64,000 nt of DNA from Candidatus Taylorbacteria bacterium RIFCSPHIGHO2_02_FULL_46_13 (GCA_001821015.1 MHRQ01000020.1:44977-108976); one strand, 5' to 3'. Shown: positions 19,840-39,268, counted from the stretch's first letter. Made by a program: numbers and translations. Notes: generated by a model from the letters alone, not told the origin.

Positions 19840-19871
19840 ACGCCCGTTCTCCGCACGTGTCTTTTTTGAGT

Positions 19872-20030
19872 TTATTGCCAAGCGAGTGAGCGGAGAGAAA
19901 AAGTATCTTCTTTTTATCTCCCGAGCGAGCGATGGCAACAAAGGGTTTACTACCCCACGGCTTGCCGCGGGTGAGTACGCGGGGAGCGTGTCCCTCATGC
20001 GGGGCTTGCCCCGCGGTATAATACCCTTTA
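19872..20030. repeat. Hairpin repeat family, copy A (long form with GC-rich palindromic insert)
   Basis: TTATTGCCAAGCGAGTGAGCGGAGAGAAAAAGTATCTTCTTTTTATCTCCCGAGCGAGCGATGGCAACAAAGGGTTTACTACC...GGTATAATACCCTTTA. Near-identical to 24095..24253. Confidence 0.85.
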
Positions 20031-20441
20031 TTTTTTTAGGCATTTTTTGAATTCCTCGTAGTTTCTAATGTAATCTTTTTCATCATAGAGACTGTCAAAG
20101 AGGGCGAGTGTGACGGTATCTTTTTTGAAATTTTTCATAACGTGCCATACATACGGTTCAAGCACGAGACCTTCTTCCGGATGTGAAAGCGTCACGGTGG
20201 TTTTTTCAGCGCCGTTGTCCAATTCTACATCACATCCTCCTGAAAGAACCATAAAAACCTGTCTGCTCTGGTGATGAGTGTGAGCACCTCTCGGCTCGCT
20301 ACTTTCTGTGCATTTAGTTACGAGAGTTCTCTTTATGGTAAACGGAACCTCGCCCGCGTTCTTTCCTTCTTGAAACATAGTGAGAGCTCCATTTTTGGTT
20401 TCAAAGGATGGGAATTTTATTATGGTATAGAGTTTTTTCAT
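20028..20441 (-). CDS. FdtA/WxcM-like cupin sugar 3,4-ketoisomerase
   Basis: [27 protein letters not shown] ... YVWHVMKNF ... [20 protein letters not shown] fits the FdtA pattern (His pair, cupin fold, C-terminal YDE.DYIR). Confidence 0.6.
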
Positions 20442-21463
20442 AGTAATTGTTTAGTTTTTATTTTTTTCAACAGGGGCGACAAGATTGTTTTTACTAATCT
20501 GCGGCCTGGGTAGTATATTGAGTTGTTAAAAAATTGTTCGCTGTTCTGCTTGAATCCGGGCCGTACTATTACTCCATACTGCCAGTCAGGTTCTACCGTT
20601 CTTACGCTCTCAAGCATTTGGTAGAGGCATTGTGCATAGGGTTTGTACATGAGATCTTTCGCAGGCGATGAGCGTGTATACTCACGAAACGTTTGTGGCC
20701 CATAGGGCAGAATCATTGATCTCGGGTATAGTCCAAAGCCTGAAAAATGGAAGAATACAAGCTTGTCTGGGCCCACATACACCTCTTTTTCTTTCGTGTA
20801 GATGGGCATTCCCTGAATGTTCCATGGTGCCACATTTGCCCCTCGGTTTTTTAATATATACACGCCCTTGAATTTCTCTTCAAAATAATCAAGATACCCT
20901 TGGTCGTCATAGTGTCCAGGTCTTTCCGTGTCGTCACAGTATAAGTTACATTGCATACGCCACCAATGGAGGCACTCAAGCGCGTATGTGTCATTTCGAA
21001 AGATGAGCATGCCAACATTGTATGTACCCACCTCTTTTTCTTTTGCTTTACGTGTAGCCACAAGATTGTGTGGAATTATCATAATGGAATGAGCTCCCAT
21101 TTCTTTGTAAATAATTTCTGGTGAAGAAAAGAAATATAAATCAGCATCAAGATAGGTAATATGTTCAACATTTTTGTAGGTGAGGATATAAAGCGGGAGG
21201 GAGGGGGAGATGGTAAAGAAGTATTTTCTTTGACTACGAGTTTTTTTAATTTCTTTCAACTCGTCATCTTCAAATTCTTTTAGCGTTATCAACTGAACGT
21301 TTTGCAAACGTAATTTTTCAAGTGTCTGGTAGGTGAGGTCATCCATGCACAAAATCCAGAGGGTAAATTTTCCTATGTGTGTACTCAAAGAGTGATGAAG
21401 AGCCAAGCCTTTTATAAGAAAGCCTTTATCAAAAAGCGTACAAAAATTGAGATGTGCATTCAT
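20438..21463 (-). CDS. Putative GT-A nucleotide-diphospho-sugar transferase-like protein
   Basis: YLDADLYFF (DxD) and YDDQGYLDYF motifs. Weak family-level guess. Confidence 0.4.
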   Translation of the reverse strand: MNAHLNFCTLFDKGFLIKGLALHHSLSTHIGKFTLWILCMDDLTYQTLEKLRLQNVQLITLKEFEDDELKEIKKTRSQRKYFFTISPSLPLYILTYKNVEHITYLDADLYFFSSPEIIYKEMGAHSIMIIPHNLVATRKAKEKEVGTYNVGMLIFRNDTYALECLHWWRMQCNLYCDDTERPGHYDDQGYLDYFEEKFKGVYILKNRGANVAPWNIQGMPIYTKEKEVYVGPDKLVFFHFSGFGLYPRSMILPYGPQTFREYTRSSPAKDLMYKPYAQCLYQMLESVRTVEPDWQYGVIVRPGFKQNSEQFFNNSIYYPGRRLVKTILSPLLKKIKTKQLL

Positions 21464-22428
21464 TGTTGTAGAATCCCTTTTAACATCTTTTTTGTGGTAT
21501 GTAGTACCCTCAATATCTTTCCAGCAACACGATTGTAGCGATATCGTTGATTGACGAGCTTTTTGCTTTCAGCGGCGAGTTCTTGGAACAGAGGGTCATT
21601 AAATAAGGCGCTTCCTCTTTCTGCAATCTCAAGAGCGAACCCGTCTTGTCTTTTCAATGTGGCAAAAATCCACATCAGTAAATATTCTCGAATGGTAAAG
21701 CTTTTGTCAGTCATTTCATTTACAAATGACATTTCTATCCAGCCCGGAGCTTCAGAGGTCGCAGTACTCAGTGCTCTGTTTTCTGATGCGGAGAGTGATT
21801 TTTTTATCTCATTCTTTAGGCGTCTGACACCCATCACTCTCATAGTAGTCATCCAAAAAGGCATCTTTTCCATATACCGCAAAACCTGCCAAGCCTTGTC
21901 TTCACCATGGTACGCGTCAATAATCCCGGGTTCAAAGTCAGCCACCATCACTGTATAGGCGAGCGACCCTATGCTCTGGAAAAGACTTAAATCGGTTCCC
22001 TGTGAGTCAGTTTTGAACCAATCAATCCTATCAAGCTTGATTTCGGAGAGCACGTCGTTTATATTTTCAGCCTTACGCGTGACTCTTTTTTCTACTTCAA
22101 ACCGTGGACCTATGATCCAGTGCGCAGTTTTTTCGGTATCTGGTTTCAAGGTGCTTGAACAGAAAGGTGAGGCGGTAAGATAAAAGTCAGCTGTTTTTTC
22201 TTTACCAGGGATAACAACTGAATCGCGAATGTAGAGCTCTTTGAAAGGGGAAGTGTTTTCGGTAAGGTGTTTCATTTCTCGGCTATCGGGATCAAAGGCA
22301 ATACAAATGGAATAGGGAGCGATTTCTTTCCAAGGGCCATATACTTCTCCCGACGCTCCAATATCAAGCAACACAGGCGGTCTCGCTCTCAATTCATTTC
22401 TATTGAGTATGGTTTGAATGATGTTCAT
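21460..22428 (-). CDS. FkbM-family SAM-dependent methyltransferase
   Basis: VLLDIGASGEVYGPW and IDWFKTDSQGTDLSLF resemble FkbM motifs (DxGAxxG; KiDvEGxE). Confidence 0.5.
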   Translation of the reverse strand: MNIIQTILNRNELRARPPVLLDIGASGEVYGPWKEIAPYSICIAFDPDSREMKHLTENTSPFKELYIRDSVVIPGKEKTADFYLTASPFCSSTLKPDTEKTAHWIIGPRFEVEKRVTRKAENINDVLSEIKLDRIDWFKTDSQGTDLSLFQSIGSLAYTVMVADFEPGIIDAYHGEDKAWQVLRYMEKMPFWMTTMRVMGVRRLKNEIKKSLSASENRALSTATSEAPGWIEMSFVNEMTDKSFTIREYLLMWIFATLKRQDGFALEIAERGSALFNDPLFQELAAESKKLVNQRYRYNRVAGKILRVLHTTKKMLKGILQQ

Positions 22429-23252
22429 TTTATTTTAAATATAAAACCTTTGTCAGTTGCGGTTTCTTTACCAAGGTTGATATCTCCGGCGAGTGCTTTC
22501 CAATCGGCAACTATTTCATAGTCTGACGTAAAGAAACGAAGAAACTTTCTTTCATTAAGAAACCGCGCAGGATAGCTTGCATCATAGACTTTTGGTGAAG
22601 ATTTTTGAATCGTAATGCGGTCTGGTGTATTTCCTGTAAAGAAAGGGGTTCTATCCACAATAATGTATTGCGGGCGCAACTCTTTGATTGTATGCAGGAG
22701 GTCGTACGGTTTTTCAAGATATGGAAGCACGCTCGAAAGCAGTATCACCTGTGGGTGTACTACAGCAGCGCAATTTTTTAAGTCATCATAAAATTTCAAA
22801 TGTTCATCAGCGAGGTGTTGGTTTCCGAATTGGACGAAATGTTTCTGCTCAACGATACTCCAGGTAAGAGGTCTCACGTGTGAGAGGAAGTTTTTGTTTT
22901 GGTAATAACTGGAACCTAATGATCCTCCAATATCAATGGCGCTTAAGGTGTTTTCATTCACACTGGCAATCCACAGTAGTCCCGCAAGCACAGGCCATGA
23001 ATATTCTATGTGATCAAAATTAACCGAGTCGCGTTCAAAGGCGGCTTCACCATGTTTGACTCTTAGTGCCGCATTTTTCACTTTCTCCAGAATGAGAGGT
23101 GTATCATAGCCAGTGGTTAGGGTTCGTGCCTCGCTCCATGTCTTGTAGTCCCCGCTGTATTGTTTGGGTTGCGGATGTGCAATAGAATGAGCCATATCCC
23201 AGATTATTGGAGGTGTCATCGCCTTTATGATTTTTAATGGATATCGTTTCAT
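22425..23252 (-). CDS. Putative SAM-dependent methyltransferase (uncharacterised family common in glycan/flagellin-glycosylation clusters)
   Basis: GYDTPLILEKV...GEAAFERDSV...IDIGGSLGSSYYQNK...WSIVEQKHFV pattern. Assignment from motif memory only. Confidence 0.4.
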   Translation of the reverse strand: MKRYPLKIIKAMTPPIIWDMAHSIAHPQPKQYSGDYKTWSEARTLTTGYDTPLILEKVKNAALRVKHGEAAFERDSVNFDHIEYSWPVLAGLLWIASVNENTLSAIDIGGSLGSSYYQNKNFLSHVRPLTWSIVEQKHFVQFGNQHLADEHLKFYDDLKNCAAVVHPQVILLSSVLPYLEKPYDLLHTIKELRPQYIIVDRTPFFTGNTPDRITIQKSSPKVYDASYPARFLNERKFLRFFTSDYEIVADWKALAGDINLGKETATDKGFIFKIK

Positions 23253-24082
23253 TTTTTATTTAATACTTCATCCAGATTTTTGCGAGGGAAAACATCCAAA
23301 AGTCCTCCCCGAGTAGCATTCATAACGAGCACCTCGCGCACAGTTGCATACCGCTTGATTTCTTTGTAGATATTCCAGAGTCTTACATAGGATTCAAATT
23401 CTGTTCCCAGATCGGTACCCCACTGGTTTAGGCCCGTTCGAGTAAGCTCGCTCTCATTTTCGGCGTAAAAATGTCGGTTTTCTCCATAGTGTAATATCCA
23501 GTCATGGTCGCAACCTACTAGATAGATTTCTTTCGCTCCGCTATAGAGTGCTAAGTATATTGCTTGGTGTGCAACTGTCTGTATAAGTGGAATTTGTTTT
23601 GTGTACTCAATAGGACTCTCCGCTGAAATTTGGCTTTGTGAAAACACATAAAAATAAATCCGTTGTTTCTTGAGCAGTTTGAATTCTTGCGACAAGGAGC
23701 GGTCATGTACAGACATCATGACTTTTTGCCCCTCGGGCAGGTGTCTTTCGGCATCCTCCAGCCACGCCTTCATTTGTTCTTTTGTGATCGGAGCATGTGA
23801 TTCTGAAAAGACATGATATTCCGGTTTAATAATCTTAAAATCAGGATGCACAAAGAAATTACTGACGCTAATACAGAATTCTCCCTCTAGTTTCTTAAGG
23901 TCTTGCGTTTTTATTGAGGGGCCGCAGGCGAGAATAAAGCACCGCTTTCCGAGAAACTTGTTTTTAAGCTCGGCGTTTGGTTTGAGTTTCTGTCGGTGGC
24001 GAAGATAGAACAGGTATTTGCGCAGAGCATGTTTCTGTGTTCGGTAGAAATCTGCAAGTTCAATGAACAGTGGCCCAACCAC
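23249..24082 (-). CDS. DUF115/Maf-like (motility-accessory-factor type) putative nonulosonic-acid transferase; start uncertain (possible GTG)
   Basis: FILACGPSI and YLVGCDHDW motifs. Track ORF (to 24286) N-terminus is the translated repeat copy B; no ATG lies between the repeat and the conserved region. Confidence 0.4.
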   Translation of the reverse strand: MVGPLFIELADFYRTQKHALRKYLFYLRHRQKLKPNAELKNKFLGKRCFILACGPSIKTQDLKKLEGEFCISVSNFFVHPDFKIIKPEYHVFSESHAPITKEQMKAWLEDAERHLPEGQKVMMSVHDRSLSQEFKLLKKQRIYFYVFSQSQISAESPIEYTKQIPLIQTVAHQAIYLALYSGAKEIYLVGCDHDWILHYGENRHFYAENESELTRTGLNQWGTDLGTEFESYVRLWNIYKEIKRYATVREVLVMNATRGGLLDVFPRKNLDEVLNKK

Positions 24083-24094
24083 GGTAAGTCTTTT

Positions 24095-24253
24095 TATTGC
24101 CAAGCGAGTGAGTGGAGAGAAAAAGTATCTTCTTTTTCTCTCCCGAGCGAGCGACGGCAACAAAGGGTTTACTACCCCACGGCTTGCCGCGGGTGAGTAC
24201 GCGCACAGCGCGTTTTTCATGCGGGGCTTGCCCCGCGGTATAATACCCTTTAT
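24095..24253. repeat. Hairpin repeat family, copy B (long form)
   Basis: TTATTGCCAAGCGAGTGAGTGGAGAGAAAAAGTATCTTCTTTTTCTCTCCCGAGCGAGCGACGGCAACAAAGGGTTTACTACCCCACGGCTTGCCGCGGG...GGTATAATACCCTTTAT. Confidence 0.85.
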
Positions 24254-24295
24254 AAATCCTCGAATAGTCGGGTTTTTTTCAGTCATGGGGTTTTT

Positions 24296-24988
24296 CTATT
24301 TTTTGTGACATACACCATAAAAACAGGTAGTCAGCACTCCGGTACTCAAGGTTGCTTTGTGGGTGAGTAACTCTACGTTTCCAGCTCCAAAGTGGTCTGT
24401 AAGAAGAGCCAAGAAATCATTTCGCGTGAGCTCGTACTTGTGATACGGATTATGCATGCTGGGGCCGGATTTCCCGGTAGGGTTTTCAGGCGAACTTACA
24501 ATAAGTGTGCCGCCAGGCTTAAGAGCGTTTAAAAAAGCTTTGATAAGTGGCCCTTGGTATTTTGATTCTATGTGTTCAATCCCCTCAATACAGCCGATGA
24601 CGTTAAACTGTGCGGAGGGCAATTCAGGATTTGTTAGATCTCCCGACAAGAACGAAGTTGTCTTATTTCCGTATATCCGACGCGCGTATTCAATCGTAAT
24701 AGCATCGTCATCCATGCCTTTATACACGATTCCAAACGGCGCAAGTATCTCTGCCGCGTATCCGCTCCCGCATGGGAAGTCTAAGACATGGTCGTTGGGG
24801 CGGCAGTAAAAACCCACGAGCGAATACCGTCCTTTATGCCGCACCACTGAATCTTTCATGTCGGCTGACGGGACGTCGCTTTTTTGTACAGAAACATGTG
24901 TGCCGTCAGGCATATCAAATTCAAGGCCTCTAAGGTAGAGTCGTTCGGGGTCAGCCGCAGTCCGTATGATGTTCTCTGTGCGCTTCAT
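24296..24988 (-). CDS. Class I SAM-dependent methyltransferase
   Basis: HVLDFPCGSGYAAEIL (motif I) and LKPGGTLIVS (post-motif II). Confidence 0.65.
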   Translation of the reverse strand: MKRTENIIRTAADPERLYLRGLEFDMPDGTHVSVQKSDVPSADMKDSVVRHKGRYSLVGFYCRPNDHVLDFPCGSGYAAEILAPFGIVYKGMDDDAITIEYARRIYGNKTTSFLSGDLTNPELPSAQFNVIGCIEGIEHIESKYQGPLIKAFLNALKPGGTLIVSSPENPTGKSGPSMHNPYHKYELTRNDFLALLTDHFGAGNVELLTHKATLSTGVLTTCFYGVCHKK

Positions 24989-24995
24989 ACGATAG

Positions 24996-25658
24996 TTATG
25001 GTTTTACAATAAAAGATGGAATATGGCTCCATGGAAATTTCTCAATTCTGACGTTCATTTTCGCAAAGAAATCATCCACAGCCTTTGTCTCCCCGGGGAA
25101 CGTTCCATAGTCGTCAAAGGCGATGATTCCGCCTCTCACCACACGCAGGTAGAGCGTTTCAAGGATTGTTTTGGCTGGTTCATAAATGTCAGTGTCTATA
25201 TGCAGTAAGGCAATTTTGAGGTGGGGATTGTCGCGCAGATAGCGCGGCACGGTCTTTACAACATCGCCGGCTACCAGTTCTACGTTTGTGATTTTTTTCG
25301 CATCAAGGATATGCTCGAGTGCCGTGGTGCTCAACGCTTCGTTGCCGGCACTAGAGACAAAACGTTGCAAGTATTTTTTATCGTCCTTGAATTTTGTTGG
25401 GGGTACTTTGCCAAACGTATCAAATCCGATGATCTTTCGGCTGTGGGGAGTTTCCACTAGATTTCTAAACGTCGCGAATTGAATGAGAGAGTTTCCCTTA
25501 AAAACCCCGCATTCAACGACTGCACCCGGCAGGTCGGCGATTTTCTTATACAACTCATAGTGTGCGAGAATTTTCCCCATACGGTCAATGCCGCTGGTCA
25601 TCATGAATCCATTTTCATATTCAAACACCGAATTATTTTTTACTACGGGTTTTTTCAT
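24996..25658 (-). CDS. TylF/MycF-family sugar O-methyltransferase
   Basis: LPGAVVECGVFKGNSLIQFA ... IIGFDTFGKVPP ... IAFDDYG fits the macrocin-O-methyltransferase family pattern. Confidence 0.65.
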   Translation of the reverse strand: MKKPVVKNNSVFEYENGFMMTSGIDRMGKILAHYELYKKIADLPGAVVECGVFKGNSLIQFATFRNLVETPHSRKIIGFDTFGKVPPTKFKDDKKYLQRFVSSAGNEALSTTALEHILDAKKITNVELVAGDVVKTVPRYLRDNPHLKIALLHIDTDIYEPAKTILETLYLRVVRGGIIAFDDYGTFPGETKAVDDFFAKMNVRIEKFPWSHIPSFIVKP

Positions 25659-26527
25659 TTTGGTTTGTATTTTAATTTCTTTCTTTGTTCTTTTTCGACC
25701 GGAAGAATAGGTTCACGTTTAAAGGAGAGGGAAATGTGCGTAGCATGTAAATTGCGAGCCAGTTTGGATAATCCTTGTGGTTCAAGCGATGCGGCATGGT
25801 CGGTACCTTTCCATGTTCTATTTTTAGTAAAGTGTCGTTCAACCCACACTGCTCCGAGGGTGTATGCCGCTATGTCTATCGCAATGCCATTATGATGTCC
25901 CGAGAACCCGATTTCTTTTACGCGTTCCCCATAGGTTTCCTTTAGCCGTGTTATTTCAAGCAGGCTCACGTCTTTAAAATCAACAGGGTATCCCGACGTA
26001 CATGCATAGAGCACCAGGCGTTTCTTTGCCGCTCCGGTTTTCTCAAAGAAGGCGACGAGCGCTTCTTCTTCTTTCGGCGTTGTCATTCCGACCGACACAT
26101 GGATATCTCCTTTATATGTATCGCGCAAGAGCTCTAGCATCTTGAAATGATTGTTACTTGCGGAAGGGACTTTTATAAATCGGGGATTAAGACGGATTAT
26201 TTCTTTTGCCGATGTTACGTCCCAGACTGATGATGAATATTCAATACCGATTTTTTGAGCATACGTTAGCAGTTTTTCATGGTCTGCGACGCTAAACTCA
26301 AGATATTCGCGATGGGCTCCGTAGGTATTTCCAAATGAATTTTGCGGGTTTGGATGGGGGGTTTGGTACTGTTTTTTTGTCAGAAGTTCTCTTGGATTTC
26401 TCTTTTGGAATTTGACGACGTCCGCGCCAGAATCTTTTGCAAGCTTAATAAGTTCTTTGGCAATCTCAATATCGCCCATATGGTTGCATCCGATTTCCGC
26501 GATTACGTTAGGTTTTTTGTATTTCAT
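25655..26527 (-). CDS. NeuB-family nonulosonic acid (sialic/pseudaminic/legionaminic-like) synthase, short form without C-terminal SAF domain
   Basis: VIAEIGCNHMGDIEIAKELIKLAKDSGADVVKFQKRNPRELL. 290 aa, shorter than canonical ~340-aa NeuB. Confidence 0.7.
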   Translation of the reverse strand: MKYKKPNVIAEIGCNHMGDIEIAKELIKLAKDSGADVVKFQKRNPRELLTKKQYQTPHPNPQNSFGNTYGAHREYLEFSVADHEKLLTYAQKIGIEYSSSVWDVTSAKEIIRLNPRFIKVPSASNNHFKMLELLRDTYKGDIHVSVGMTTPKEEEALVAFFEKTGAAKKRLVLYACTSGYPVDFKDVSLLEITRLKETYGERVKEIGFSGHHNGIAIDIAAYTLGAVWVERHFTKNRTWKGTDHAASLEPQGLSKLARNLHATHISLSFKREPILPVEKEQRKKLKYKPK

Positions 26528-27198
26528 AACCCTTTAATTTTTTTGAATAGTTCTTCTGCGCCCGCCCAGTCTTCGGGAGTATCAATATCAATTGATTGTT
26601 CAGGTTTCATTTCAAACATGCCGATTGAGCCCCCAAGAAAATTCTTATGATTTTGCAAGGTTGATTTCCTGGTGATGTAGAACGCACCATTCTCGGTGAT
26701 AGTTCCTTCAAAATCTTGCGTTCGGGGCCGTTCGTTCGGGTTGTAATTGAGAGGCTTTCCATTTTTTGTCCAATAGAACCGTTTGTGCAAAGTCCCGGTA
26801 ACTAAGGCGTCATTTTTTTTCTCTTCAAGTGTTTCAATGGCGCGGTCTATGTCGTCTCTCGTAGTGAGGGGGTTGGTTGCGTGCAGGATTACCAATATAT
26901 CAAACGGGACTTGTGTCATGAAGTGTAGGTGGACGAGCTCTTCGGGGGTGGTATCTTGCGCTAGTTCTTTAGGGCGGTGGCTGATCGTAAGATTCAGTCC
27001 TTGTGCGGCCATGGTTTGTTTAATCTTTTCATCTTCTGTAGAGACGTGGATCGCATCAATATATTTTGATTGTTTTGCGGCATGCGCAACCCAATAGGCC
27101 AAAGGTCTTCCGTGGAAGGTTTTAATGTTTTTACCGGGAATCCTTTTTGAATTTCCCCGAAGCGGGATGATCGCGACGACTTTTTTATTATTAATCAT
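26524..27198 (-). CDS. CMP-nonulosonate (acylneuraminate) cytidylyltransferase, NeuA/KdsB family
   Basis: KVVAIIPLRGNSKRIPGKNIKTFHGRPLAYWVAHAA...IDAIHVSTEDEKI. Start set to MINNKK; ATGA-type overlap with neuB-like gene. Confidence 0.7.
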   Translation of the reverse strand: MINNKKVVAIIPLRGNSKRIPGKNIKTFHGRPLAYWVAHAAKQSKYIDAIHVSTEDEKIKQTMAAQGLNLTISHRPKELAQDTTPEELVHLHFMTQVPFDILVILHATNPLTTRDDIDRAIETLEEKKNDALVTGTLHKRFYWTKNGKPLNYNPNERPRTQDFEGTITENGAFYITRKSTLQNHKNFLGGSIGMFEMKPEQSIDIDTPEDWAGAEELFKKIKGL

Positions 27199-28258: not shown

Positions 28259-28261
28259 ACG

Positions 28262-29608: not shown

Positions 29609-29674
29609 ATCGTTTATTTTAAAATTTCAGTGCTACCGTAGCGAAGCGGTCTCTAACGGGATCCATATATTTTT

Positions 29675-30502
29675 CTATACTATATCCGCAAAGATACGTT
29701 CTGTTTTTTTAAAGACAAAAACACCGATAATGAATAGCACGATGCCAATGAGCGCTGATGTTGCCAGCGCTGTCCAGTCAAGCGAGCCTGTGCCTAAAAG
29801 GCCGATGCGCGCGTTATTGATGACTCCGGTCATGGGATTGAGATACAGTATCCATGCATATTTGCCGGCTATGGAGGTAGGGTAAATGACAGGTGTTATG
29901 AAGATGAGTAACTGCAAAAAAAATGGGAGCACGTATCGGACATCGCGATATCGCACATTAATTGATGACAGTATTAATCCAGTACCGACTGCGGGTAAAA
30001 ATGCCAACAGTAACAGTAGCGGTACGAGTAAGACTCCCACAATTGTGGGGAGGATCTGGTAGTACACCATCAGTCCTGCCATAATGAGCGCCGCGAAGGA
30101 GAAATCAACCAACTTGGTTACGGTATCCGCTAGGGGGAGGAGCAGACGCGGAAAGTAGACTTTGGTAACGATTGAAGCATTTGAAATTAGCGTGTTGGAG
30201 CTTTCTGACAGGGAGCTGGTAAAGAATTGCCAGAATAAAAGACCGCTATAGACAAACACCGGATAGGGGACGCCTTCGGAAGGAAGGTGTGCGAGTTTTC
30301 CGAAGATTACGGTAAACACCACCATGGTGATGAATGGTTGGAACACTGCCCACATGATTCCGACGACGGTTTGCTTATAGCGTACTTTAATGTCGCGCCA
30401 TGCAAAAAAGTAGAGTAGTTCTCGATACTCCCACAGCTCTGTAAGGTCAGCGGTACTGAACGATTTCTTCGGTCGGATGATTTTTGTATATACGGTGGAC
30501 AT
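29675..30502 (-). CDS. ABC-2 type polysaccharide export permease (Wzm-like)
   Basis: Six hydrophobic segments; position immediately downstream of Wzt-like ATPase. Confidence 0.75.
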   Translation of the reverse strand: MSTVYTKIIRPKKSFSTADLTELWEYRELLYFFAWRDIKVRYKQTVVGIMWAVFQPFITMVVFTVIFGKLAHLPSEGVPYPVFVYSGLLFWQFFTSSLSESSNTLISNASIVTKVYFPRLLLPLADTVTKLVDFSFAALIMAGLMVYYQILPTIVGVLLVPLLLLLAFLPAVGTGLILSSINVRYRDVRYVLPFFLQLLIFITPVIYPTSIAGKYAWILYLNPMTGVINNARIGLLGTGSLDWTALATSALIGIVLFIIGVFVFKKTERIFADIV

Positions 30503-30510
30503 GGCAGTGC

Positions 30511-31608: not shown

Positions 31609-31621
31609 TATAAGGTGATAA

Positions 31622-31870
31622 CTACCACTTGTTGATTTTACGTACCACTTTTCGTTTCAGATTCAAGTATGATCGGGTTGCTCTCTGTTCAAGCTCAGGA
31701 GAGAGGACATGCAAAAGCTCACGCCCGAGGATTCGGTATTGACCACCGACCTTATTGGCGCGTATCATCCCGTTTTTAAGAAGTCGCTTCATAGTGCTCT
31801 TGCTCACTTTGAGAAGCTTCTGGGTTTCTGCGGTTGTATAGACCACTCCTGGCCTTATCTCTTCGTTCAT
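31622..31870 (-). CDS. Small excisionase-type (HTH_17-like) DNA-binding protein
   Basis: YTTAETQKLLKVSKSTMKRLLKNGMIRANKVGGQYRILGREL. 82 aa. Confidence 0.6.
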   Translation of the reverse strand: MNEEIRPGVVYTTAETQKLLKVSKSTMKRLLKNGMIRANKVGGQYRILGRELLHVLSPELEQRATRSYLNLKRKVVRKINKW

Positions 31871-31876
31871 AACCCT

Positions 31877-31905
31877 AGTATAGGGCAGGTGTCAAAAGGT
31901 GTCAA
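31877..31905 (-). promoter_or_regulatory. Sigma70-like promoter (TTGACA-N17-TATACT, minus strand) with duplicated TTGACACC box, 6 nt upstream of the HTH gene start codon (leaderless-type transcript)
   Basis: Minus strand reads CCTAC TTGACA CCTTTTGACACCTGCCC TATACT AGGGTT ATG. Plus strand shows GGTGTCAA at 31888..31895 and 31898..31905. Confidence 0.45.
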
Positions 31906-32058
31906 GTAGGTTCACATCTATAGAGACACATGATTAAGTATCAGTCAATTATTTTTTTCGTGTTTTCTTTATTGGGTGTGGTAGGGTGTATTCGGACAAA
32001 CAGTTTCCCACGCGGATGCGTGACTTTAAACTGTGTTTGAACTTTAACAAGGAGTGTT

Positions 32059-33054
32059 ATGTTGAATAAAATTATACCTTTCAAGCGCGTGCTGATCACG
32101 GGCATCTCTGGGTCTGGCGGCAGTTATCTCGCCGAGTACATAGTCCAGAATCATCCGGAGGTTGAAATTCACGGATTGTCACGCTGGCACAGCACGACAA
32201 ACCATGACAATCTGCATGCGGTACGTGATCGTGTAGTCATACACGAATGTGATTTGCTGGACTCTTTATCCATCTTAGCTGCGCTTGAGAAGAGCCAGCC
32301 TGACGCCATTTTTCATTTGGCCTCGCACGCCAATGTTCGTGCCTCGTTTCAGACACCGGTGGCTGTCTTGGAAAATAATATTCTCGGTACCGTCAACCTA
32401 TTTGAGGCAGTTCGTTCCGTCGGTGTCCTGCCGCGGTTCTTGCTGTGTAGCAGTTCGGAAGTGTACGGCCAGGTAAGCCGGGAGAATGGACCGATTAACG
32501 AGGATACGCGTATACGCCCCGTGAGTCCCTATGCCGTTTCAAAAGCGACACAGGACATGTTGGGATACTACTACTTCGTTGCCTACAAGATTCCCGTTAT
32601 CATCACTCGCATGTATGCATATCTGAATATGCTACGTGCCGACCTATTTGCTACCGCTTTTGCGCGACAGATTGCCCGCATAGAGCTTGGTTTGCAAAAG
32701 GAGCTTGTGCATGGGAATCTTGACTCCATTCGGACCATCATTGACGTGCGCGATGCGATGCGCGCATACTGGGAAGCACTACTTCACTGTGAGCCTGGCG
32801 AGGCTTACAACATCGGAGGCGATACGGTGAAATCAGTGCGCGAAGTGTTGAATGACCTGGTATCGTTAGCTAAGGTTCCTATACCGATGCGTGAGGAACA
32901 AACGCTTCTGCGTCCGGCTGACGTTACTAATCAAATCCCGAACACAAAGAAATTTCGGGACGCGACGGGCTGGAAGCCGCACTACTCTTTCCAAGAGAGT
33001 CTCACGGACTTGCTCGCGCACGTTCGTACTGAAGTTGCAAAGGAAGAACGGTAG
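32059..33054 (+). CDS. Gmd-paralogous NAD(P)-dependent reductase/dehydratase, Rmd-like (possible GDP-4-keto-6-deoxy-D-mannose reductase)
   Basis: RVLITGISGSGGSYLAEYIV..., PVSPYAVSKATQDML (YxxxK), FARQIARIELGLQKELVHGNLDSIRTIIDVRD. Architecture resembles Rmd rather than Fcl; from memory. Confidence 0.5.
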   Translation: MLNKIIPFKRVLITGISGSGGSYLAEYIVQNHPEVEIHGLSRWHSTTNHDNLHAVRDRVVIHECDLLDSLSILAALEKSQPDAIFHLASHANVRASFQTPVAVLENNILGTVNLFEAVRSVGVLPRFLLCSSSEVYGQVSRENGPINEDTRIRPVSPYAVSKATQDMLGYYYFVAYKIPVIITRMYAYLNMLRADLFATAFARQIARIELGLQKELVHGNLDSIRTIIDVRDAMRAYWEALLHCEPGEAYNIGGDTVKSVREVLNDLVSLAKVPIPMREEQTLLRPADVTNQIPNTKKFRDATGWKPHYSFQESLTDLLAHVRTEVAKEER

Positions 33055-33060
33055 ATTGAA

Positions 33061-33088
33061 GGGTGGACACCAAGTCCACCCTTTTTTA
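33061..33088 (+). terminator. Rho-independent terminator (GGGTGGAC-ACCAA-GTCCACCC + T6)
   Basis: Perfect 8-bp GC-rich stem followed by TTTTTT directly after stop of 32059..33054. Confidence 0.65.
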
Positions 33089-33174
33089 ATGCGTGCGACA
33101 TGGTGATGGAGAGTTTAGAAACAAACTCCCTCTTGTCCTACCCCGCACCTCTGGCGCGGGTCAAGACGAGTACT

Positions 33175-33696
33175 TTACGGGTCCAAGACTCCGCCCTGCG
33201 GTTTAATACTCTTTATTTTTTCAATAATCTTTGTGGTTGAAATTGCTTCAAACTCCGGTGGGCAAGCTCGCTCAAGTATAACGAGCTTTGTTGGAGAACT
33301 TTTCAGCAGTTCACGTCGCTTCGGTATATCAAATGCGTCGGTAGTGATGACGTAGTAATCTGGCTTAAGCGTGCTGAACACTGAATTGAGTCCACTTAAA
33401 AGGTCCGTACTGAGAAGATTTTGATCAAGAAGAGCGTACGTCACTGATTTTATAGAGGAAACCATCTTAAGCCGTATATGTTGGTTTAAAACAGGGCGTT
33501 CCGCTCCTTTATATATGCGCAAAATGGAATCATTTCCGACCATTACGACAAGAATATCGCCGTATTTTTTACAATCTTCAAAGAAAAGAACATGGCCGGC
33601 ATGTGTCAGGTCAAAGCTACCAGAGCAAAATACAATCTTCTCATCCTTATGTTTCTCTCTGATAGAAGAGAGCTCTTTACCATCAATGATACTCAT
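33175..33696 (-). CDS. Cytidylyltransferase-like nucleotidyltransferase (HxGH family; glycerol-3-P cytidylyltransferase/RfaE-domain-II-like)
   Basis: KIVFCSGSFDLTHAGHVLFFEDCKKYGDILVVMVGND. Start set to internal Met MSIIDG; track ORF to 33777. Confidence 0.6.
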   Translation of the reverse strand: MSIIDGKELSSIREKHKDEKIVFCSGSFDLTHAGHVLFFEDCKKYGDILVVMVGNDSILRIYKGAERPVLNQHIRLKMVSSIKSVTYALLDQNLLSTDLLSGLNSVFSTLKPDYYVITTDAFDIPKRRELLKSSPTKLVILERACPPEFEAISTTKIIEKIKSIKPQGGVLDP

Positions 33697-33933
33697 GATA
33701 GGTATGTAGTATAGGACAGGCGGGCCTTCTTTAAAAGAGTGTGTGAAAATAATTGCAGGTATGCTTTTGTATAACACGACCGCGCGAGAAAGTCTTCTCT
33801 GTCTGTAGTGCGCAGGGATTTGACTGTGGGTTGCAAGAAATGGTAGGTTGACTCCAGATTTGCATGTTGTTGTGCAACATTAGATTGATGGTTCAACTAA
33901 CACACCAACGATAACTACCCAACAAAAAGGTGG

Positions 33934-34491
33934 ATGATGAAAATCCGAAAAGCACACGAGGTGAAAACTATTCTGGAGAGAAGGGACCAGAAGGTTTTTG
34001 AACAGTTGTTTACGCTTGAAGATGGTAGCTCGTATAACCCTCTTATGTATGGCGTTACGTTAGAGAACTATCCTGTTCTCATTATGCCTGTTACGAAAGA
34101 TAAACAGGTAATCGTGCTCAAGCAGTTTCGGTATGCAGCAGAAAAGGTGATACTGGAATTTCCAGGAGGGTGGCCAAAATCAGGAGAAACACCCCAGCAA
34201 GCTCTTCGCTCCGAGCTCGTTGAAGAGTCGGGGTATAAAGCGGGAAGGGTGATCCAGTTAACCAAAAAGCTTTGGTTTGAACCCGCGCACACTCGAGTGT
34301 TCTATGTTCCATTTCTTGCGTTGGACTGCGTGTTAGAAAGAAATCCGAAACCTGACCGATTGGAACACATTGAGGTGCTCAAGATTCCCCTTGATACGTG
34401 GATTGCCATGATTCAGAACGGGGAAGTTGAAGACGACAAGAGCATCGCCATCACCTTTCTGGCACTGACGCATTTGAAAGGTGCGGTCTAA
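33934..34491 (+). CDS. NUDIX hydrolase (position next to gmd/rmd-like genes suggests a GDP-sugar hydrolase such as GDP-mannose mannosyl hydrolase)
   Basis: Nudix box GGWPKSGETPQQALRSELVEESGY. Confidence 0.65.
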   Translation: MMKIRKAHEVKTILERRDQKVFEQLFTLEDGSSYNPLMYGVTLENYPVLIMPVTKDKQVIVLKQFRYAAEKVILEFPGGWPKSGETPQQALRSELVEESGYKAGRVIQLTKKLWFEPAHTRVFYVPFLALDCVLERNPKPDRLEHIEVLKIPLDTWIAMIQNGEVEDDKSIAITFLALTHLKGAV

Positions 34492-34496
34492 AGTTA

Positions 34497-34533
34497 AATC
34501 TTGCAGCGAAACAAAGCTGCAAGATTTTTTATT
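34497..34533 (+). terminator. Rho-independent terminator (AAATCTTGCAGC-GAAACAA-GCTGCAAGATTT + TTTATT)
   Basis: 12-bp perfect stem immediately after the NUDIX gene stop. Confidence 0.6.
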
Positions 34534-34839
34534 GCCGAGGAGAACAGCAACAAAAGGTTGAGGAGCGAATGCGTAGCGCTCCGAAAGACATGGTGATGTA
34601 GTTTTGAATCTTTGACGAAAAAACTAGCCACAAGGTGTAGTGAGCCTGTACGGTTTAATATTCTTTATTTCTTTCCAATACTTACGTGTAGATTTGTACG
34701 CCATTCATCAGCATGGTATAGTCGCACCAGATTCACTAATGCTAATGACTTGTTCATATGGTTTTGCGTGCGCAGATGCGACATGTAAACGGGAATGAAT
34801 CCTATATGAAAGCACATTGACACTCAAAGAAAGGTTAGT

Positions 34840-36381
34840 ATGCAGCCTAGAAAACTTGACGTATTGTTCGTTAATCCTGACTCATCTTTCAAGGCGTATC
34901 AGGCATTAAGCAAAGATTTTTCGGCAATAGAGCCGCCCACGTGGGCGTTACTGTTAGCCCAGAGTTGTCGGGCCAAAGGTTTTGGTGTCGGTATTTTGGA
35001 CTGTGGTGCCGAACGACTGGGCATTAATGATTCAATTGAACGCATTATTGGCGCAGACCCACGATTAGTCTGTTTTGTGGTGTACGGTCAAAACCCGAAT
35101 TCTGGCACTACAAATATGGCCGGTGCGCACGATTTGTGTGCACAGCTAAAGGAACAGTATCCTCAATATGTCACCTGCTTCGTAGGTTCTCACACCAGTG
35201 CCTTGCCTAAAGAAGTGCTGGCGTGGGATTGCGTAGATTTCGTTCTCTTGAATGAAGGTGTCTATGCACTTCATAACGTGCTCCAAACAGATCTGAAAGA
35301 ACATATTGAGCAGGTTAAGGGCATCGGCTACAAAAAGCAGGGTGTCTTGATCTTGAATCCCCCCGAGCGTGTCGTGCCGCAAGATCGGATGGACGTAGAC
35401 CTGCCGGGGTATGCGTGGGATCTTCTTCCGTATCGTGAAAAACCTCTTGACTTGTATCGGTCGCATTTCTGGCATGCGGAGTTCAATCATGAACTTCGTA
35501 CTCCATTCGTTGCACTCTACACGGGACTTGGGTGCAAGTTCAAATGTGACTTCTGCATGGTTAACATTGTCAACCGTGTTGATAATACTGACGGAGTTGT
35601 CGCTTCTCACTCACCGACCGTGCGCTTCTGGTCGCCAGAGTTTATGATTGGAGAATTTGAGAAACTTGCTGAACTGGGGGTCAAGACGGTCAGGATTTCA
35701 GACGAAATGTTTTTCCTTAATCGGAAATTCTTTGAACCGTTGTTGAATCTGGTTGTGGAACGCGGTTTCAAATTCCGCATGTGGGCGTACTCTCGCATAG
35801 ATACTGTTCAACCACAGCATTTAGATCTGTTTAAACGCGCGGGTATTAATTGGCTCGCACTTGGAATTGAGGCTGCCAATCTGGTCATCCGACAAGAAGT
35901 CTCCAAGGGTTCTTTCAAGGATATGAGCATCCGCAAAGTAGTAAGCGAGATTGGTCGGCATGACATGAATATAATTGCCAATTATATTTTCGGTCTTCCT
36001 GACGACAGTCTTAAAACGATGCAAGAAACACTGGACTTATCCTTGGAGTTGAATACTGAAACCGCAAACATGTTTCCTTGTCAGGGCTTGCCTGGTAGCG
36101 CGCTGTACTACCTCGCGAAAAGCAACGGGTGGGCCTTGCCGGATTCTTATGCCGGGTATGCATTTCTTTCTTATGAGAGCCAACCGTTGCCTACGAAATA
36201 TTGTACGGCGGCAGAAGTGCTCCGTTTTCGGGATGATGCGTGGAAAAAATACTTCTCTAATCCTGCGTATCTCAGCCTTGTGGAACGCAAATTCGGTGCC
36301 AACCAACGACGCAACGTTGAGGCTATGTCAAAAATCAAGCTTCGTCGCAAGCTTCTCGGTGATCCGCCTCCAGGGCCGTAG
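34840..36381 (+). CDS. B12-binding (class B) radical SAM enzyme, probable methyltransferase
   Basis: N-terminal cobalamin-binding-like region (LDVLFVNPDS...VGILDCG) and radical SAM cluster motif GCKFKCDFC (Cx3Cx2C). Confidence 0.7.
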   Translation: MQPRKLDVLFVNPDSSFKAYQALSKDFSAIEPPTWALLLAQSCRAKGFGVGILDCGAERLGINDSIERIIGADPRLVCFVVYGQNPNSGTTNMAGAHDLCAQLKEQYPQYVTCFVGSHTSALPKEVLAWDCVDFVLLNEGVYALHNVLQTDLKEHIEQVKGIGYKKQGVLILNPPERVVPQDRMDVDLPGYAWDLLPYREKPLDLYRSHFWHAEFNHELRTPFVALYTGLGCKFKCDFCMVNIVNRVDNTDGVVASHSPTVRFWSPEFMIGEFEKLAELGVKTVRISDEMFFLNRKFFEPLLNLVVERGFKFRMWAYSRIDTVQPQHLDLFKRAGINWLALGIEAANLVIRQEVSKGSFKDMSIRKVVSEIGRHDMNIIANYIFGLPDDSLKTMQETLDLSLELNTETANMFPCQGLPGSALYYLAKSNGWALPDSYAGYAFLSYESQPLPTKYCTAAEVLRFRDDAWKKYFSNPAYLSLVERKFGANQRRNVEAMSKIKLRRKLLGDPPPGP

Positions 36382-36398
36382 GCCGAGATATATGTTCT

Positions 36399-36488
36399 TT
36401 ATTGCCTAGCGAGCGAGGGGGAGAGAAAAAGTATCTTCTTTTTCTCTCCCGAGCGAGCGACGGCAACAAAGGGTTTACTACCCTTTAT
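36399..36488. repeat. Hairpin repeat family, copy C (short form)
   Basis: TTATTGCCTAGCGAGCGAGGGGGAGAGAAAAAGTATCTTCTTTTTCTCTCCCGAGCGAGCGACGGCAACAAAGGGTTTACTACCCTTTAT. Confidence 0.85.
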
Positions 36489-36584
36489 GCACTATTCAAT
36501 GAGCCGCGTGATCCACATCGCGCGGCTTTTTTGTGTTCGTATAACCCGGTGTTCCTTGCTTACTAGATATGTTTTGGTATAGTA

Positions 36585-38849
36585 TTGCCTACATTCATGA
36601 CGGTCAATAAATATCTCAAGTATTTTATCATCGCGGGACTCCTGCTGTCTCTTTTCATTCCTTTTATTGTAACCACACATTCTTTCTTCCCGTTCATCAC
36701 GGGAAAAAATTTTGCATTCCGTATTATCACGGAAATTATTTTCGGTGTCTGGATCATCCTTGCTTTGTGTGACAGCACCTACCGCCCGAAGTTCTCGTGG
36801 CTCGCCGTATCAGTTGGGATGTTTGTTCTCGTAATCGGCATCGCTGACATTTTTAGCGCGAATCCATACAAGAGCTTTTGGTCAAACTTTGAGCGCATGG
36901 AGGGATACATCACGATTTTGCATTTGGCCGCCTATTTCCTTGTCGCGTCTTGCGTGCTGAACACTGAAAAGCTTTGGACATTCTTTTTGCAGACGAGTGT
37001 AGGGGCGAGCATCATTATGAGCGTGTACGGCATGTTGCAACTGGCTGGAAAGCTTACGATCAATCAAGGCGGTGTGCGTCTTGACGGTACACTCGGAAAC
37101 GCTTCCTACCTCGCGGTCTACATGATGTTGAATTTGTTCATCGTGCTCTTTTTGCTTGTGCGGCAGAGAAAAATCGTACTGTGGCGATGGGTGTACGGCG
37201 TGGCGATAGTTTCCCAGCTTTATATTCTTTACCACACCGCAACGCGAGGCGCGATATTGGGGTCGCTAGGAGGGGTGCTGATTGCTGGAATATTACTGAC
37301 GTTGTTTTCCCATATCAAAACACACCGCCGAATTGGGATGGTGGCACTGGGAGTTGTGGTGCTTTTGTTCGCGCTTGGCGCGACGCTGAAGAATACTGAT
37401 TTTGTGAAGAATCAACCTTCGTTGGTAAGGCTCACCGATATTTCAACCAGTGAAGCAAAGTCGCGTTTTCTAGTGTGGGGCATGGCGTGGGAAGGATTTA
37501 AAGAAAGCCCCAAAACCATGGTTATCGGCTGGGGGCAGGAGAGTTTTAACTATGTGTTCAACAAATATTACAACCCGGCCATGTATGCGCAGGAGCAGTG
37601 GTTTGACCGCACGCACGACATTTTCTTTGATTGGTTGGTTGCGGGCGGGGCACTCGGTCTGTTGGGATATCTTTCCATACTTTTCTTCGCGCTTTATTAT
37701 ATTTGGAAGCAGGGTGAGCTTGATTTTTCGCTGAAACACTGGTTTCGGCGATGGGTTCAATTTTCTAAGGGTCAGGAAATCCCGCATCTTTTGGAGAAGG
37801 TGGTGCTGACGGGCCTCTTGTTTGCGTACGTGTTTCAAAACATTTTCGTTTTTGACAATATCACGAGCTACCTTCTGTTTTTTGCGCTTCTCGCGTACCT
37901 TCATTCCATTTCCGGCCAGCCCATCAAGAAGCTTTCTAAAGACCATTTTCAAATTGAGCAGCGTACGGTCAATAGCATGCTGGTGCCGCTCGTCGTAGTC
38001 GCTACTATTTTTGTCGTTTATATCGCGAATGTAACGCCGATACGCGCGTCCACGAGTCTCATTGACGCGCTCCGCCCGCAACAAGCGGGTCCGGCAACGA
38101 ATCTAGATTATTTTAAAAAGACCCTTGCACTCAATTCATTGGGGAACCCCGAGGTTCGCGAACAACTCGCGCAGGCCACCATTCAAGTCATCTCTGGGCA
38201 GTCGGTGGACCTCACGCTTAAACAGCAGTTCTACGATCTGACGCGAAGTGAATTGTTGAAGCAAGTTGATAAAACGCCGAATGATGCGCGCTATTATCTT
38301 TTTCTTGGATCATTTCTCAACCGTGTGCACAATTATGATGAAGCGCTCACCGCGCTTACGAAAGCCTTTGAGCTTTCTCCAAAGAAACAGACGATTATGT
38401 TTGAGCTCGGTTCAACATACATCAATAAAGGCGACAACGCCAAGGCGCTTGCCCTCATGAAAGCTGCGTTTGATCTTGATCAAAGTTTTGCCGAAGCACG
38501 AATTATTTATGCGGTTGCTTTGGTGTATGCGAAAGATTTCGCGACTGCCGAGGAGCTGATGCAACCTCTCGCCGGGACTGCGCGGGAATATGATGATCGG
38601 CTGGTAAACGCGTATTCAGCCACAGGACGCCTCAGCACGGTCGTTGATCTTTTAGGCAAGCGGGTTGAACACAACCCAAAAGACTCGCAAGCACGATTTA
38701 GTCTTGCGGCGGCATATTTGGCGTCAGGTGCGCGAGCGAAAGCGGTTGGGGTATTGCGAACAGTGGTTAAAGATTTTTCAGATCAAAAAGATAAAGTAGA
38801 TCAGGCCAATTATTACATTCAGGAAATTCAGGCGGGGAGAAACCCCTAA
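36585..38849 (+). CDS. Polytopic membrane protein with O-antigen ligase/polymerase (Wzy_C-like) domain fused to C-terminal TPR repeats
   Basis: About 10 hydrophobic helices; TATRGAILGSLGG and THDIFFDWLVAGGALG motifs (Wzy_C-like); C-terminal 250 aa with TPR-like A/L/Y periodicity. Confidence 0.55.
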   Translation: MPTFMTVNKYLKYFIIAGLLLSLFIPFIVTTHSFFPFITGKNFAFRIITEIIFGVWIILALCDSTYRPKFSWLAVSVGMFVLVIGIADIFSANPYKSFWSNFERMEGYITILHLAAYFLVASCVLNTEKLWTFFLQTSVGASIIMSVYGMLQLAGKLTINQGGVRLDGTLGNASYLAVYMMLNLFIVLFLLVRQRKIVLWRWVYGVAIVSQLYILYHTATRGAILGSLGGVLIAGILLTLFSHIKTHRRIGMVALGVVVLLFALGATLKNTDFVKNQPSLVRLTDISTSEAKSRFLVWGMAWEGFKESPKTMVIGWGQESFNYVFNKYYNPAMYAQEQWFDRTHDIFFDWLVAGGALGLLGYLSILFFALYYIWKQGELDFSLKHWFRRWVQFSKGQEIPHLLEKVVLTGLLFAYVFQNIFVFDNITSYLLFFALLAYLHSISGQPIKKLSKDHFQIEQRTVNSMLVPLVVVATIFVVYIANVTPIRASTSLIDALRPQQAGPATNLDYFKKTLALNSLGNPEVREQLAQATIQVISGQSVDLTLKQQFYDLTRSELLKQVDKTPNDARYYLFLGSFLNRVHNYDEALTALTKAFELSPKKQTIMFELGSTYINKGDNAKALALMKAAFDLDQSFAEARIIYAVALVYAKDFATAEELMQPLAGTAREYDDRLVNAYSATGRLSTVVDLLGKRVEHNPKDSQARFSLAAAYLASGARAKAVGVLRTVVKDFSDQKDKVDQANYYIQEIQAGRNP

Positions 38850-38882
38850 AAAGCCTAGCGCTTATAGCTTAGGGCTTTGAAA

Positions 38883-38906
38883 ACGAAGGTTGAACCTTCG
38901 TTTTTA
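38883..38906 (+). terminator. Rho-independent terminator (ACGAAGGTT-GA-ACCTTCGT + TTTTTAT)
   Basis: Perfect 8-9 bp stem followed by T-tract, 35 nt after stop of 36585..38849. Confidence 0.65.
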
Positions 38907-39154
38907 TGGTTTAGGGTACAGGGGAGAGGGTAGAGCATGGTGTTAATAGGCGCGCATTCGGTGAGCGCATTTCCAAGCTATTGAACCATAACGATTCATT
39001 TGACTTTATTAAGCATATATGCTAAGCTCTCCAGTGTGAGTGCTAGCCGACGCTAGCCCTAACGAATGTCTGCGAAAAACCCAGCGAAAGCGGGGTTTTT
39101 CGTTTCTGTTTTTAGCCTTTCTGCTATACTATAAGTTGCAACCCAAACAAATTT

Positions 39155-39242
39155 TATTGCCTAGCGAGTGAGCGAAGAGAAAAAGTATACTCTTTTTCTC
39201 TCCCGAGCGAGCGACGGCAACAAAGGGTTTAATACCCTTTAA
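39155..39242. repeat. Hairpin repeat family, copy D (short form)
   Basis: TTATTGCCTAGCGAGTGAGCGAAGAGAAAAAGTATACTCTTTTTCTCTCCCGAGCGAGCGACGGCAACAAAGGGTTTAATACCCTTTAAT. Confidence 0.85.
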
Positions 39243-39268
39243 TCAAAATTTGAAAACGGGTACATTGC

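Follow-up and report, generated by a model that had tools for sequence, protein, structure and literature searches.

Among the repeats described from bacterial intergenic DNA, REP sequences are imperfect palindromes of 20–40 nucleotides (nt) with a 5' GTAG, usually arranged in inverted pairs, present at more than 100 copies per genome and accompanied by a REP-flanked RAYT gene. ERIC and BOX elements measure ~100–200 nt, are strictly intergenic and strongly folding, and occur in either orientation; their size variants come about through ~70-nt inserts at fixed internal sites in ERIC and through a variable number of internal modules in BOX (A-Bn-C). For elements of the IS200/IS605 type, targets including TTTAT, ATTAT and TTGAT were documented, with neither target duplication nor inverted repeats (PMC4227781). 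From bacteria of the candidate phyla radiation (CPR), TIGR stem-loop systems were reported (PMC12045711). Here, an intergenic hairpin repeat was analysed in a stretch of 64,000 nt from Candidatus Taylorbacteria bacterium RIFCSPHIGHO2_02_FULL_46_13 (MHRQ01000020.1:44977-108976), which is referred to as the window and numbered from its first nucleotide. The feature is genuine and represents a new repeat family of Parcubacteria, whose members are intergenic, structured and built from modules, with an overall element length of 80–175 nt.

The window holds four intact copies (A–D) and two damaged ones (E and F), all on the + strand and within 19.8–39.3 kb (Table 1). A preliminary description of the sequence had located the four good copies, which were confirmed in place and strand and given refined bounds: the 27-mer GAGCGAGCGAYGGCAACAAAGGGTTTA occurs four times in the window and in none of 100 shuffles, a covariance model scored A–D at 88–96 bits (E-values 1e-24 to 1e-27), and in the alignment of these copies similarity sets in at TTTATTGCC and ends at CCCTTTAT/A. 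A and B share 94% identity across 161 nt. The degenerate relatives also listed there are real, but are better read as the two elements E and F, the CGGTTTAATAyTCTTTAT boxes being their 3' ends. A seventh copy, likewise on the + strand and with the inner stem deleted, is situated 1.4 kb upstream of the window start (8553-8603 of locus L084; L numbers denote loci throughout).

Elements start with TTTAT followed directly by TGCC at the 5' end and close with CCTTTAT at the 3' end. The core (module 1) is composed of an outer stem (TTGCC/GGCAA), two purine-rich arms (5' AGCGAGyGAGnG and 3' CCGArCGAGCGAy) and an inner stem, P2, of 12–13 bp, in which the 5' arm is always polypurine and the 3' arm always polypyrimidine. 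The two arms, AGCGAGTGAG and GAGCGAGCGA, resemble direct repeats, are not complementary and oppose each other as tandem G·A mismatches; on the + strand they can pair as alternating 2-bp G-C helices and tandem G·A, the − strand equivalent of which is C·T mismatches. The long hairpin postulated in the preliminary description is real, the hairpin folding of the copies reaching z = −3.4 to −6.0, but it is only partly Watson–Crick, given the conserved non-Watson–Crick purine arms. For copy C, folding energies of −42.7 kcal/mol (+ strand, z = −6.0) and −39.5 kcal/mol (− strand) were obtained, so that both strands fold well and the + strand slightly better.

Directly after the outer stem follows ACAAAG, whose AAAG(G) opens the closing stem P3 (AAAGG/CCTTT); the 3' strand of P3, (C)CTTT, is succeeded by AT, the end of the element. 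P3 encloses a loop of 5–7 nt in C and D. The extra GC-rich module of ~70 bp previously attributed to A and B is present in both, but is placed inside the loop of this terminal stem (a ~70-nt module within an AAAGGG/CCCTTT hairpin) and not appended to the element. According to the content of P3, a short class (81–91 nt, loop only), a medium class (106–122 nt, one GC hairpin), a long class (154–164 nt, three hairpins) and a longest class (~173 nt) were distinguished, the last having a hairpin tip lengthened by a palindrome with ACGCATGC at its centre. P3 of the long form encloses a four-way junction, and the hairpins of the 3' domain covary. Inserts are always positioned after AATACC(C), inside P3, and several insert types also end in AATACC(C). 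Module motifs away from elements were absent from ~0.4 Mb of loci. Since its module motifs were never seen apart from it in these loci, the element forms a single composite structure whose expansions vary; independent nested miniature inverted-repeat transposable elements (MITEs) were ruled out as an explanation of the modules on the same grounds.

Selection on the structure was assessed using an alignment of 59 distinct module-1 copies. P2 was 97.8% paired, 11 of its 13 pairs carried compensatory changes, and 131 double-change cells were counted against 40 ± 5 in shuffles (0/500), while controls with P2 slid along the alignment paired at 44–56% only. P3 was likewise 97.8% paired, with GGG/CCC, GGA/TCC and GAA/TTC as variants. 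Hardly any variation is seen in the outer stem and purine arms, partly through ascertainment; in two divergent copies found with the covariance model, the outer stem is preserved by compensatory changes (TGCGTC/GACGCA and TTATGCC/GGCATAA). The stems of the element are selected for pairing. Structural covariation, for which the preliminary description had proposed a check, is strong in the inner stem and supported in the closing stem and in the 3'-domain hairpins. Wobble counts favour the + strand (P3, 6 G·U vs 0 A·C; hairpin H2, 8 vs 0; columns 19/59, 28 U·G vs 2 C·A), as does the G·A pairing of the purine arms on this strand; the + strand is the likelier, though not the proven, functional strand.

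Of 65 metagenomic loci retrieved with a two-arm pattern, 62 were genuine, and the Rifle and Hainich aquifers contributed the majority. A search for an exact 23-mer, with each species represented by one genome, gave three further matches, one in each of three metagenome-assembled genomes (MAGs), all Patescibacteria and one of them Sungbacteria. MurB of the window matches a protein from a Candidatus Taylorbacteria MAG with 100% identity, and stretches of 25 nt are identical across lineages whose MurB proteins are only ~50% identical. The whole window gave no match to Rfam 15 at the gathering score, and permissive Rfam scans of copies C and A yielded miRNA-like hairpin noise only (≤17.6 bits vs thresholds of 40–120). 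Pattern scans of IMG/VR returned 0 matches and then 3 chance matches, which were rejected by the covariance model; no copy was detected by BLAST in GenBank phages and PLSDB plasmids. In a full-text literature search, no description of the motif or of a REP-, ERIC- or MITE-type family in CPR/Patescibacteria was found, and matches for GAGCGAGCGA were mainly papers on the Rep-binding element and the inverted terminal repeat (ITR) of adeno-associated virus (AAV). The element apparently represents an undescribed repeat family, dispersed among the genomes of groundwater Parcubacteria. With the further copies, the covariation and the lack of an Rfam match, the initial assessment as a MITE/REP-like element or structured RNA that cannot be assigned to a known family was upheld.

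Table 1 Copies of the repeat in the window and selected parts of them
Feature	Form	Position	Strand	Score and structure	Setting
Copy A	long form, 161 nt	19871..20031	+	88.4 bits; module 1 = 19871-19944, three-hairpin insert within closing stem P3	FdtA stop / DegT start junction; antisense to operon
Copy B	long form, 161 nt	24093..24253	+	96.5 bits	methyltransferase / MptE-like gene junction; antisense to operon
Copy C	short form, 91 nt	36398..36488	+	90.7 bits; P3 loop 5-7 nt	radical-SAM gene stop codon on one side, terminator of the same gene (36501-36528) on the other
Copy D	short form, 90 nt, TTTAA end	39153..39242	+	92.4 bits	upstream region of murB; TATACT box on one side, conserved murB leader hairpin on the other
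Copy E	module-1 hairpin deleted	34528..34668	+	17.8 bits, model ends only; ends intact (TTTATTGCC … TTCTTTAT)	
Copy F	5'-truncated remnant, 3' domain only	33086..33216 (left bound approximate)	+	end GCGGTTTAATACTCTTTAT; repeat family D8	
Inner stem P2 of copy C (example)		36419..36450	+	polypurine 5' arm GGGAGAGAAAAAG, polypyrimidine 3' arm; covaries between genomes	
GC-rich insert of copy A	~70 nt	19957..20026	+	two CUUG-tipped GC hairpins around a variable hairpin; preceded by ACTACCC, ends AATACCC	

Relative to the flanking genes, copies are oriented at random (same/same 17, opposite/opposite 11, convergent 10, divergent 10). No protein family recurs beside the element, the top cluster being the translated element itself; linkage to tRNA genes is absent, such genes lying within ~200 nt at only 3 of 55 loci; and upstream conservation does not extend beyond TTT, hence there is no common promoter. 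A strong hairpin (≤ −10 kcal/mol) directly precedes 16 of 58 copies, compared with 6–8 of 58 control windows. In ~14 of these 16 cases, the T-run of the hairpin merges with the TTTAT of the element; the gene upstream usually has the same orientation in such cases. Within the window, a terminator T-run is located directly 5' of E and F: in E, the NUDIX gene terminator (34496-34527) abuts TTTATTGCC and its T-tract provides the 5' TTT run of the copy, and F comes after the terminator hairpin of the epimerase gene (33059-33083).

Damage is common among the copies (E, F, L084, L011 and L056). The L084 copy apparently lost P2 when recombining direct repeats (GAGCGAG) of the two arms deleted the stretch between them, those in L011 and L056 are fragments or rearrangements of the element, and the 3' insert of E is of a different type, common to locus L023. 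Many public contigs terminate inside the element, as expected of a multi-copy repeat. Two side observations concern the surroundings of single copies: in L038 (− strand), the 3' domain is followed immediately by a perfect palindrome of ~50 nt, on the 3' side of the element (7107-7180), and in L056 the rearranged copy lies between two copies of another segment of ~57 nt (3820-4000). These genomes may hold further repeat families.

Two relatives, L086 and L088, show synteny with the glycan operon in which A and B are located. In L086 (DegT 73% identical), the FdtA–DegT gap measures 11 nt and the methyltransferase–MptE gap 15 nt, and no element was detected with the covariance model; in L088 (Taylorbacteria, 66% identical), FdtA and DegT overlap by 1 nt. 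The same junctions in the window are filled by the 161-nt copies A and B, the FdtA stop codon being inside the terminal TTTAT of A. In the syntenic locus L079 (MurB 65% identical), the promoter-like box and the leader hairpin upstream of murB are kept and D is absent. A, B and D are gains in the lineage of the window or clean losses in the relatives, and the element is plainly dispensable there. The empty sites could not be reconstructed to the base because the flanks have diverged.

The best sigma-70-like match of the region (TTGACA-17-TATACT, 11/12) is found at 31877-31905 (−), just upstream of the first open reading frame (ORF) of the − strand (31622-31870). The − strand gene run beginning with this ORF extends through B and A, consistent with antisense co-transcription of both copies, and probably represents a single operon. 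Translation through A and B results in false N-terminal extensions of ~68 amino acids (aa) in DegT (18724-20043, −) and the MptE-like protein (23249-24286, −), here and in public records, as had been anticipated from the sequence. DegT is called with 439 aa, compared with 354–411 aa in 119 other listed homologues; its true start is likely the ATG at 19839.

On balance, the family is somewhat likely to be mobile or selfish DNA, non-autonomous and spread by insertion into intergenic DNA. This is favoured over structured RNA because of the empty orthologous sites, the random orientation towards genes and the decayed copies; in these respects the element behaves as small mobile DNA would, and not as a regulatory RNA tied to particular genes. 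The start (TTTAT followed by TGCC) and the end (CCTTTAT) are found in ~50 of 57 copies; TTT precedes ATTGCC in 50–58 of 58 copies, and the 3' flank is variable. The 5' variants CTTAT, GTTAT, TCTAT and ATTAT are without mirror at the 3' end, so that the 5' pentanucleotide looks like a preferred target and not like half of a duplication; no mirrored target-site duplication of the kind that the preliminary description had suggested looking for was seen, although the element itself ends in TTTAT. Terminal inverted repeats are lacking (TTGCC… vs …CCTTTAT). All seven local copies are carried by the G-rich strand (chance agreement ~0.016, two-sided), which, judging from GC skew, should be the lagging-strand template. 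At other loci of at least 4 kb, 15 of 22 agree in orientation and L030 splits 2:1, GC skew being a proxy that is noisy on short loci.

A single-strand mechanism specifically is put forward as a tentative proposal. The lack of inverted repeats, the one-sided pentanucleotide, the subterminal hairpins and the strand asymmetry are together hallmarks of single-strand transposons of the IS200/IS605 type. An enzyme acting in trans would recognise the folded + strand and mobilise the element; by anatomy, a single-strand (HUH tyrosine) transposase of the IS200/IS605 or REP/RAYT type would fit best. Insertion would occur 3' of the T-rich pentanucleotide TTTAT, the T-runs of intrinsic terminators providing frequent targets that would be convenient and harmless. 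The substrate would be the lagging-strand template, which would account for the common orientation of the seven local copies. Each of the two TTTAT sites can form the same pairing, including one C·A, with the central ACAAAG; speculatively, ACAAAG might guide the recognition of both sites in the IS608 sense, and the (GAGC)n arms might serve as a protein-binding site, as in the AAV Rep-binding element.

Several observations weigh against mobile DNA moved in this manner. No transposase was found in Pfam scans of ~49 proteins of the 64-kb window, and phmmer with an IS200 TnpA query gave no match among the window ORFs and ~0.4 Mb of loci. The 3' end of the element equals the presumed target, and the end hairpins are dissimilar (P1/P2, 65 nt and conserved, vs P3, 4–9 bp and variable), both of which are atypical of IS200/IS605. 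Outside the window, the bias towards one replication strand is weak (15:7), and boundaries and target were deduced from the copies alone because a precise pair of empty and filled alleles was not available. As to the folding strand, the perfect stems are without wobble bias (P2: 17 G·U, 17 A·C), and the outer-stem extension TTATT/AACAA contains a conserved A·C that would be G·U on the − strand; the T/C–G/A covariation at columns 19/59 was discarded as such, as it does not exceed what independence predicts (C-A expected 4.4, observed 2) and indicates wobble tolerance only. The cross-lineage 25-nt identity, the covarying stems and the CUUG-type loops would equally fit a functional RNA, and modules that never stand alone favour a single co-evolving structure over nested mobile units. 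A more far-reaching and doubtful view is that the element is not junk but belongs, as substrate or as product, to an undescribed CPR system that is guided by nucleic acid or specific for structure. This could be (i) a new kind of single-stranded DNA (ssDNA) mobile element in which an HUH or other enzyme reads the G·A-zippered (GAGC)n hairpin, with ACAAAG as the single internal guide for both TTTAT cleavages, or (ii) a new and widespread class of structured RNA with a conserved purine bubble that binds a CPR-specific protein.

Taken as a structured non-coding RNA, the repeat would be a multi-copy trans-acting small RNA or a module working wherever it is transcribed, with the conserved G·A-rich internal loops as a platform for binding protein or RNA and a variable expansion in the 3' domain; such an RNA could, for example, be a ligand, guide-like or k-turn-like, of some protein specific to CPR. 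The combination of conserved loops and junctions with covarying stems speaks for an RNA, as do hairpin tips of the CUUG, GCAA or GAA types, the wobble positions favouring the + strand, the confinement of the modules to the composite structure, the 25-nt identity across lineages with MurB so divergent and the stem-loop guide-RNA systems reported in CPR (PMC12045711). We nevertheless consider it unlikely, as no promoter is evident and the upstream sequence is conserved only at TTT, gene orientation is random, and A and B are antisense in their operon, where the folding strand would consequently not be made. Moreover, many copies come directly after a terminator, orthologous sites in relatives are without copies, some copies have decayed, the window contains neither an array nor variable spacers nor a Nop/Tas-like gene, and Rfam gave no match. 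Quite unlikely is a host-serving role as punctuation of the REP/ERIC/BOX type, in which elements of mobile origin would have been kept for mRNA 3'-end protection, insulation of transcription units or binding of nucleoid or replication proteins on the lagging-strand template. Copies are indeed strictly intergenic and often placed at gene 3' ends by terminators (C between stop codon and terminator), folding is very stable, and 7/7 local copies have one orientation, on the G-rich strand; yet copy number is low and patchy (one exact match in each of three MAGs), the same junctions exist without the element in related genomes, a simple terminator scan leaves the elements unflagged, and sequence conservation far exceeds the needs of a generic hairpin.

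Integron attC sites, or an attC cluster without integrase, share with the repeat the single orientation of the local copies, an imperfect, strand-biased fold with unpaired bases and a variable terminal structure, and a size range that overlaps 80–175 nt. attC sites are recombination sites that fold as single strands and delimit gene cassettes; their consensus is RYYYAAC…GTTRRRY, and they form arrays with a spacing of ~0.5–1 kb at cassette 3' ends, with IntI nearby. The core boxes here read yGGCAAC / GTTGCCr and are unlike it, copies are spaced 1.2–12 kb apart across multi-gene operons on both strands, most loci have a single copy, no integrase was found in the window, and the primary sequence is strongly conserved, unlike that of attC, all of which makes this identity highly improbable. 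A mere local duplication or chance palindrome, finally, would be compatible with the position of all window copies in one 20-kb glycan-biosynthesis region, but deserves next to no credit: 65 independent loci in other genomes or samples (62 in metagenomes and 3 in Patescibacteria MAGs) have unrelated flanks, the motif was seen in 0/100 shuffles, and the stems covary. The notion of a local duplication only, raised in the preliminary description, was refuted by the copies elsewhere together with the structural covariation. A hammerhead-like reading was rejected on sequence features.

CPR/Patescibacteria genomes are streamlined (~1 Mb). A repeat that invades even 11-nt operon junctions means that such genomes host active selfish DNA, or unrecognised structured nucleic acid. 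In practical terms, the element corrupts gene calls through false N-terminal extensions and breaks metagenome assemblies, and is a potential marker of strain dynamics in groundwater time series. A mobilising enzyme or binding protein, if found, could reveal a new ssDNA transposition or RNA–protein system in an uncultured phylum.

Other features were noticed nearby. Directly upstream of the murB start, a long conserved hairpin is present in the window (39268-39345, +), in L079 (3912-3995) and in L081 (3796-3890); 8 of its 31 predicted pairs show compensatory changes when three Parcubacteria are compared, its apex (GGTTGCACTCAyATAAGACA…GGAGCTrGCCCC) hardly varies, and it has no Rfam match. It is a candidate leader or cis-regulatory RNA. 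A direct repeat of 56 nt (95% identical) is situated on either side of pyrD, encoding dihydroorotate dehydrogenase (45037-45092 and 46264-46319), and may be a recombination scar or a common regulatory motif. The large coding region at 59300-64000, with many diverged repeats of ~35–55 nt around GGCAACGTCGGCATCGGGAC (peptide motif GNVGIGT), would fit a giant surface protein of repetitive build. In the DegT gene of the public scaffold L071 (4055-4215), a seeming insertion of 168 bp includes a run of Ns with unrelated sequence and was dismissed as a scaffolding artefact.

Compared with known systems, the repeat resembles palindrome-associated transposable elements (PATEs), which are non-autonomous derivatives of IS200/IS605, and the REP/REPIN elements mobilised by RAYT (HUH Y1 transposases) in the absence of terminal inverted repeats and, as far as the copies show, of target duplication, in imperfect hairpins at or near both ends, in an enzyme that is not encoded by the element, and in a strand asymmetry with an apparent tendency toward the lagging-strand template. 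Also shared is a T-rich pentanucleotide directly 5', TTTAT being a documented target of the IS200/IS605 type (PMC4227781). It differs from both groups in that no cognate Y1 transposase was found (64-kb window and ~0.4 Mb of loci), from TnpA/RAYT substrates in a far larger left hairpin (65 nt, G·A arms) and dissimilar end hairpins, and from IS200/IS605 in a 3' end that repeats the target sequence. Unlike REP, BIME and REPIN sequences, it has no 5' GTAG, occurs in single copies of 80–175 nt and not in inverted pairs, is low in copy number and was seen without a RAYT. MITEs bounded by terminal inverted repeats (Tc1/IS630, IS5-like) differ likewise, since here such repeats and a matched flanking duplication are lacking.

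The TIGR arrays and IS110 bridge RNAs are similar in that their hairpin arms hold non-complementary segments between flanking stems, but the present copies are dispersed and not arrayed, the bubble sequences are conserved and not variable spacers, clear box C/D (CCA/UG) motifs were not seen by eye, and no Tas/Nop or IS110 gene is nearby. The Rep protein of AAV is an HUH endonuclease. Like the element, the AAV ITR has GAGCGAGCGA-type tetranucleotide repeats beside a polypurine run as well as small GC palindromes tipped CTTG or CTTTG; its GAGC repeats, however, are fully paired duplex, whereas here both arms are purine strands standing face to face, and for the element neither a Rep-like protein nor a nick site nor a terminal position is in evidence; this is a resemblance only and may be coincidental. 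ERIC and BOX are alike in their intergenic position, strong fold, occurrence in either orientation and size variation by modules at fixed internal sites, as analogues only: their sequences are unrelated, the host phylum here is CPR, and the non-Watson–Crick purine arms, the covarying polypurine stem and the inserts that form a four-way junction inside the closing stem set the present element apart. The element passed no membership test for any named family; by analogy, ERIC, BOX and REP are its closest functional counterparts, and the IS200/IS605 / RAYT group is its closest mechanistic model.

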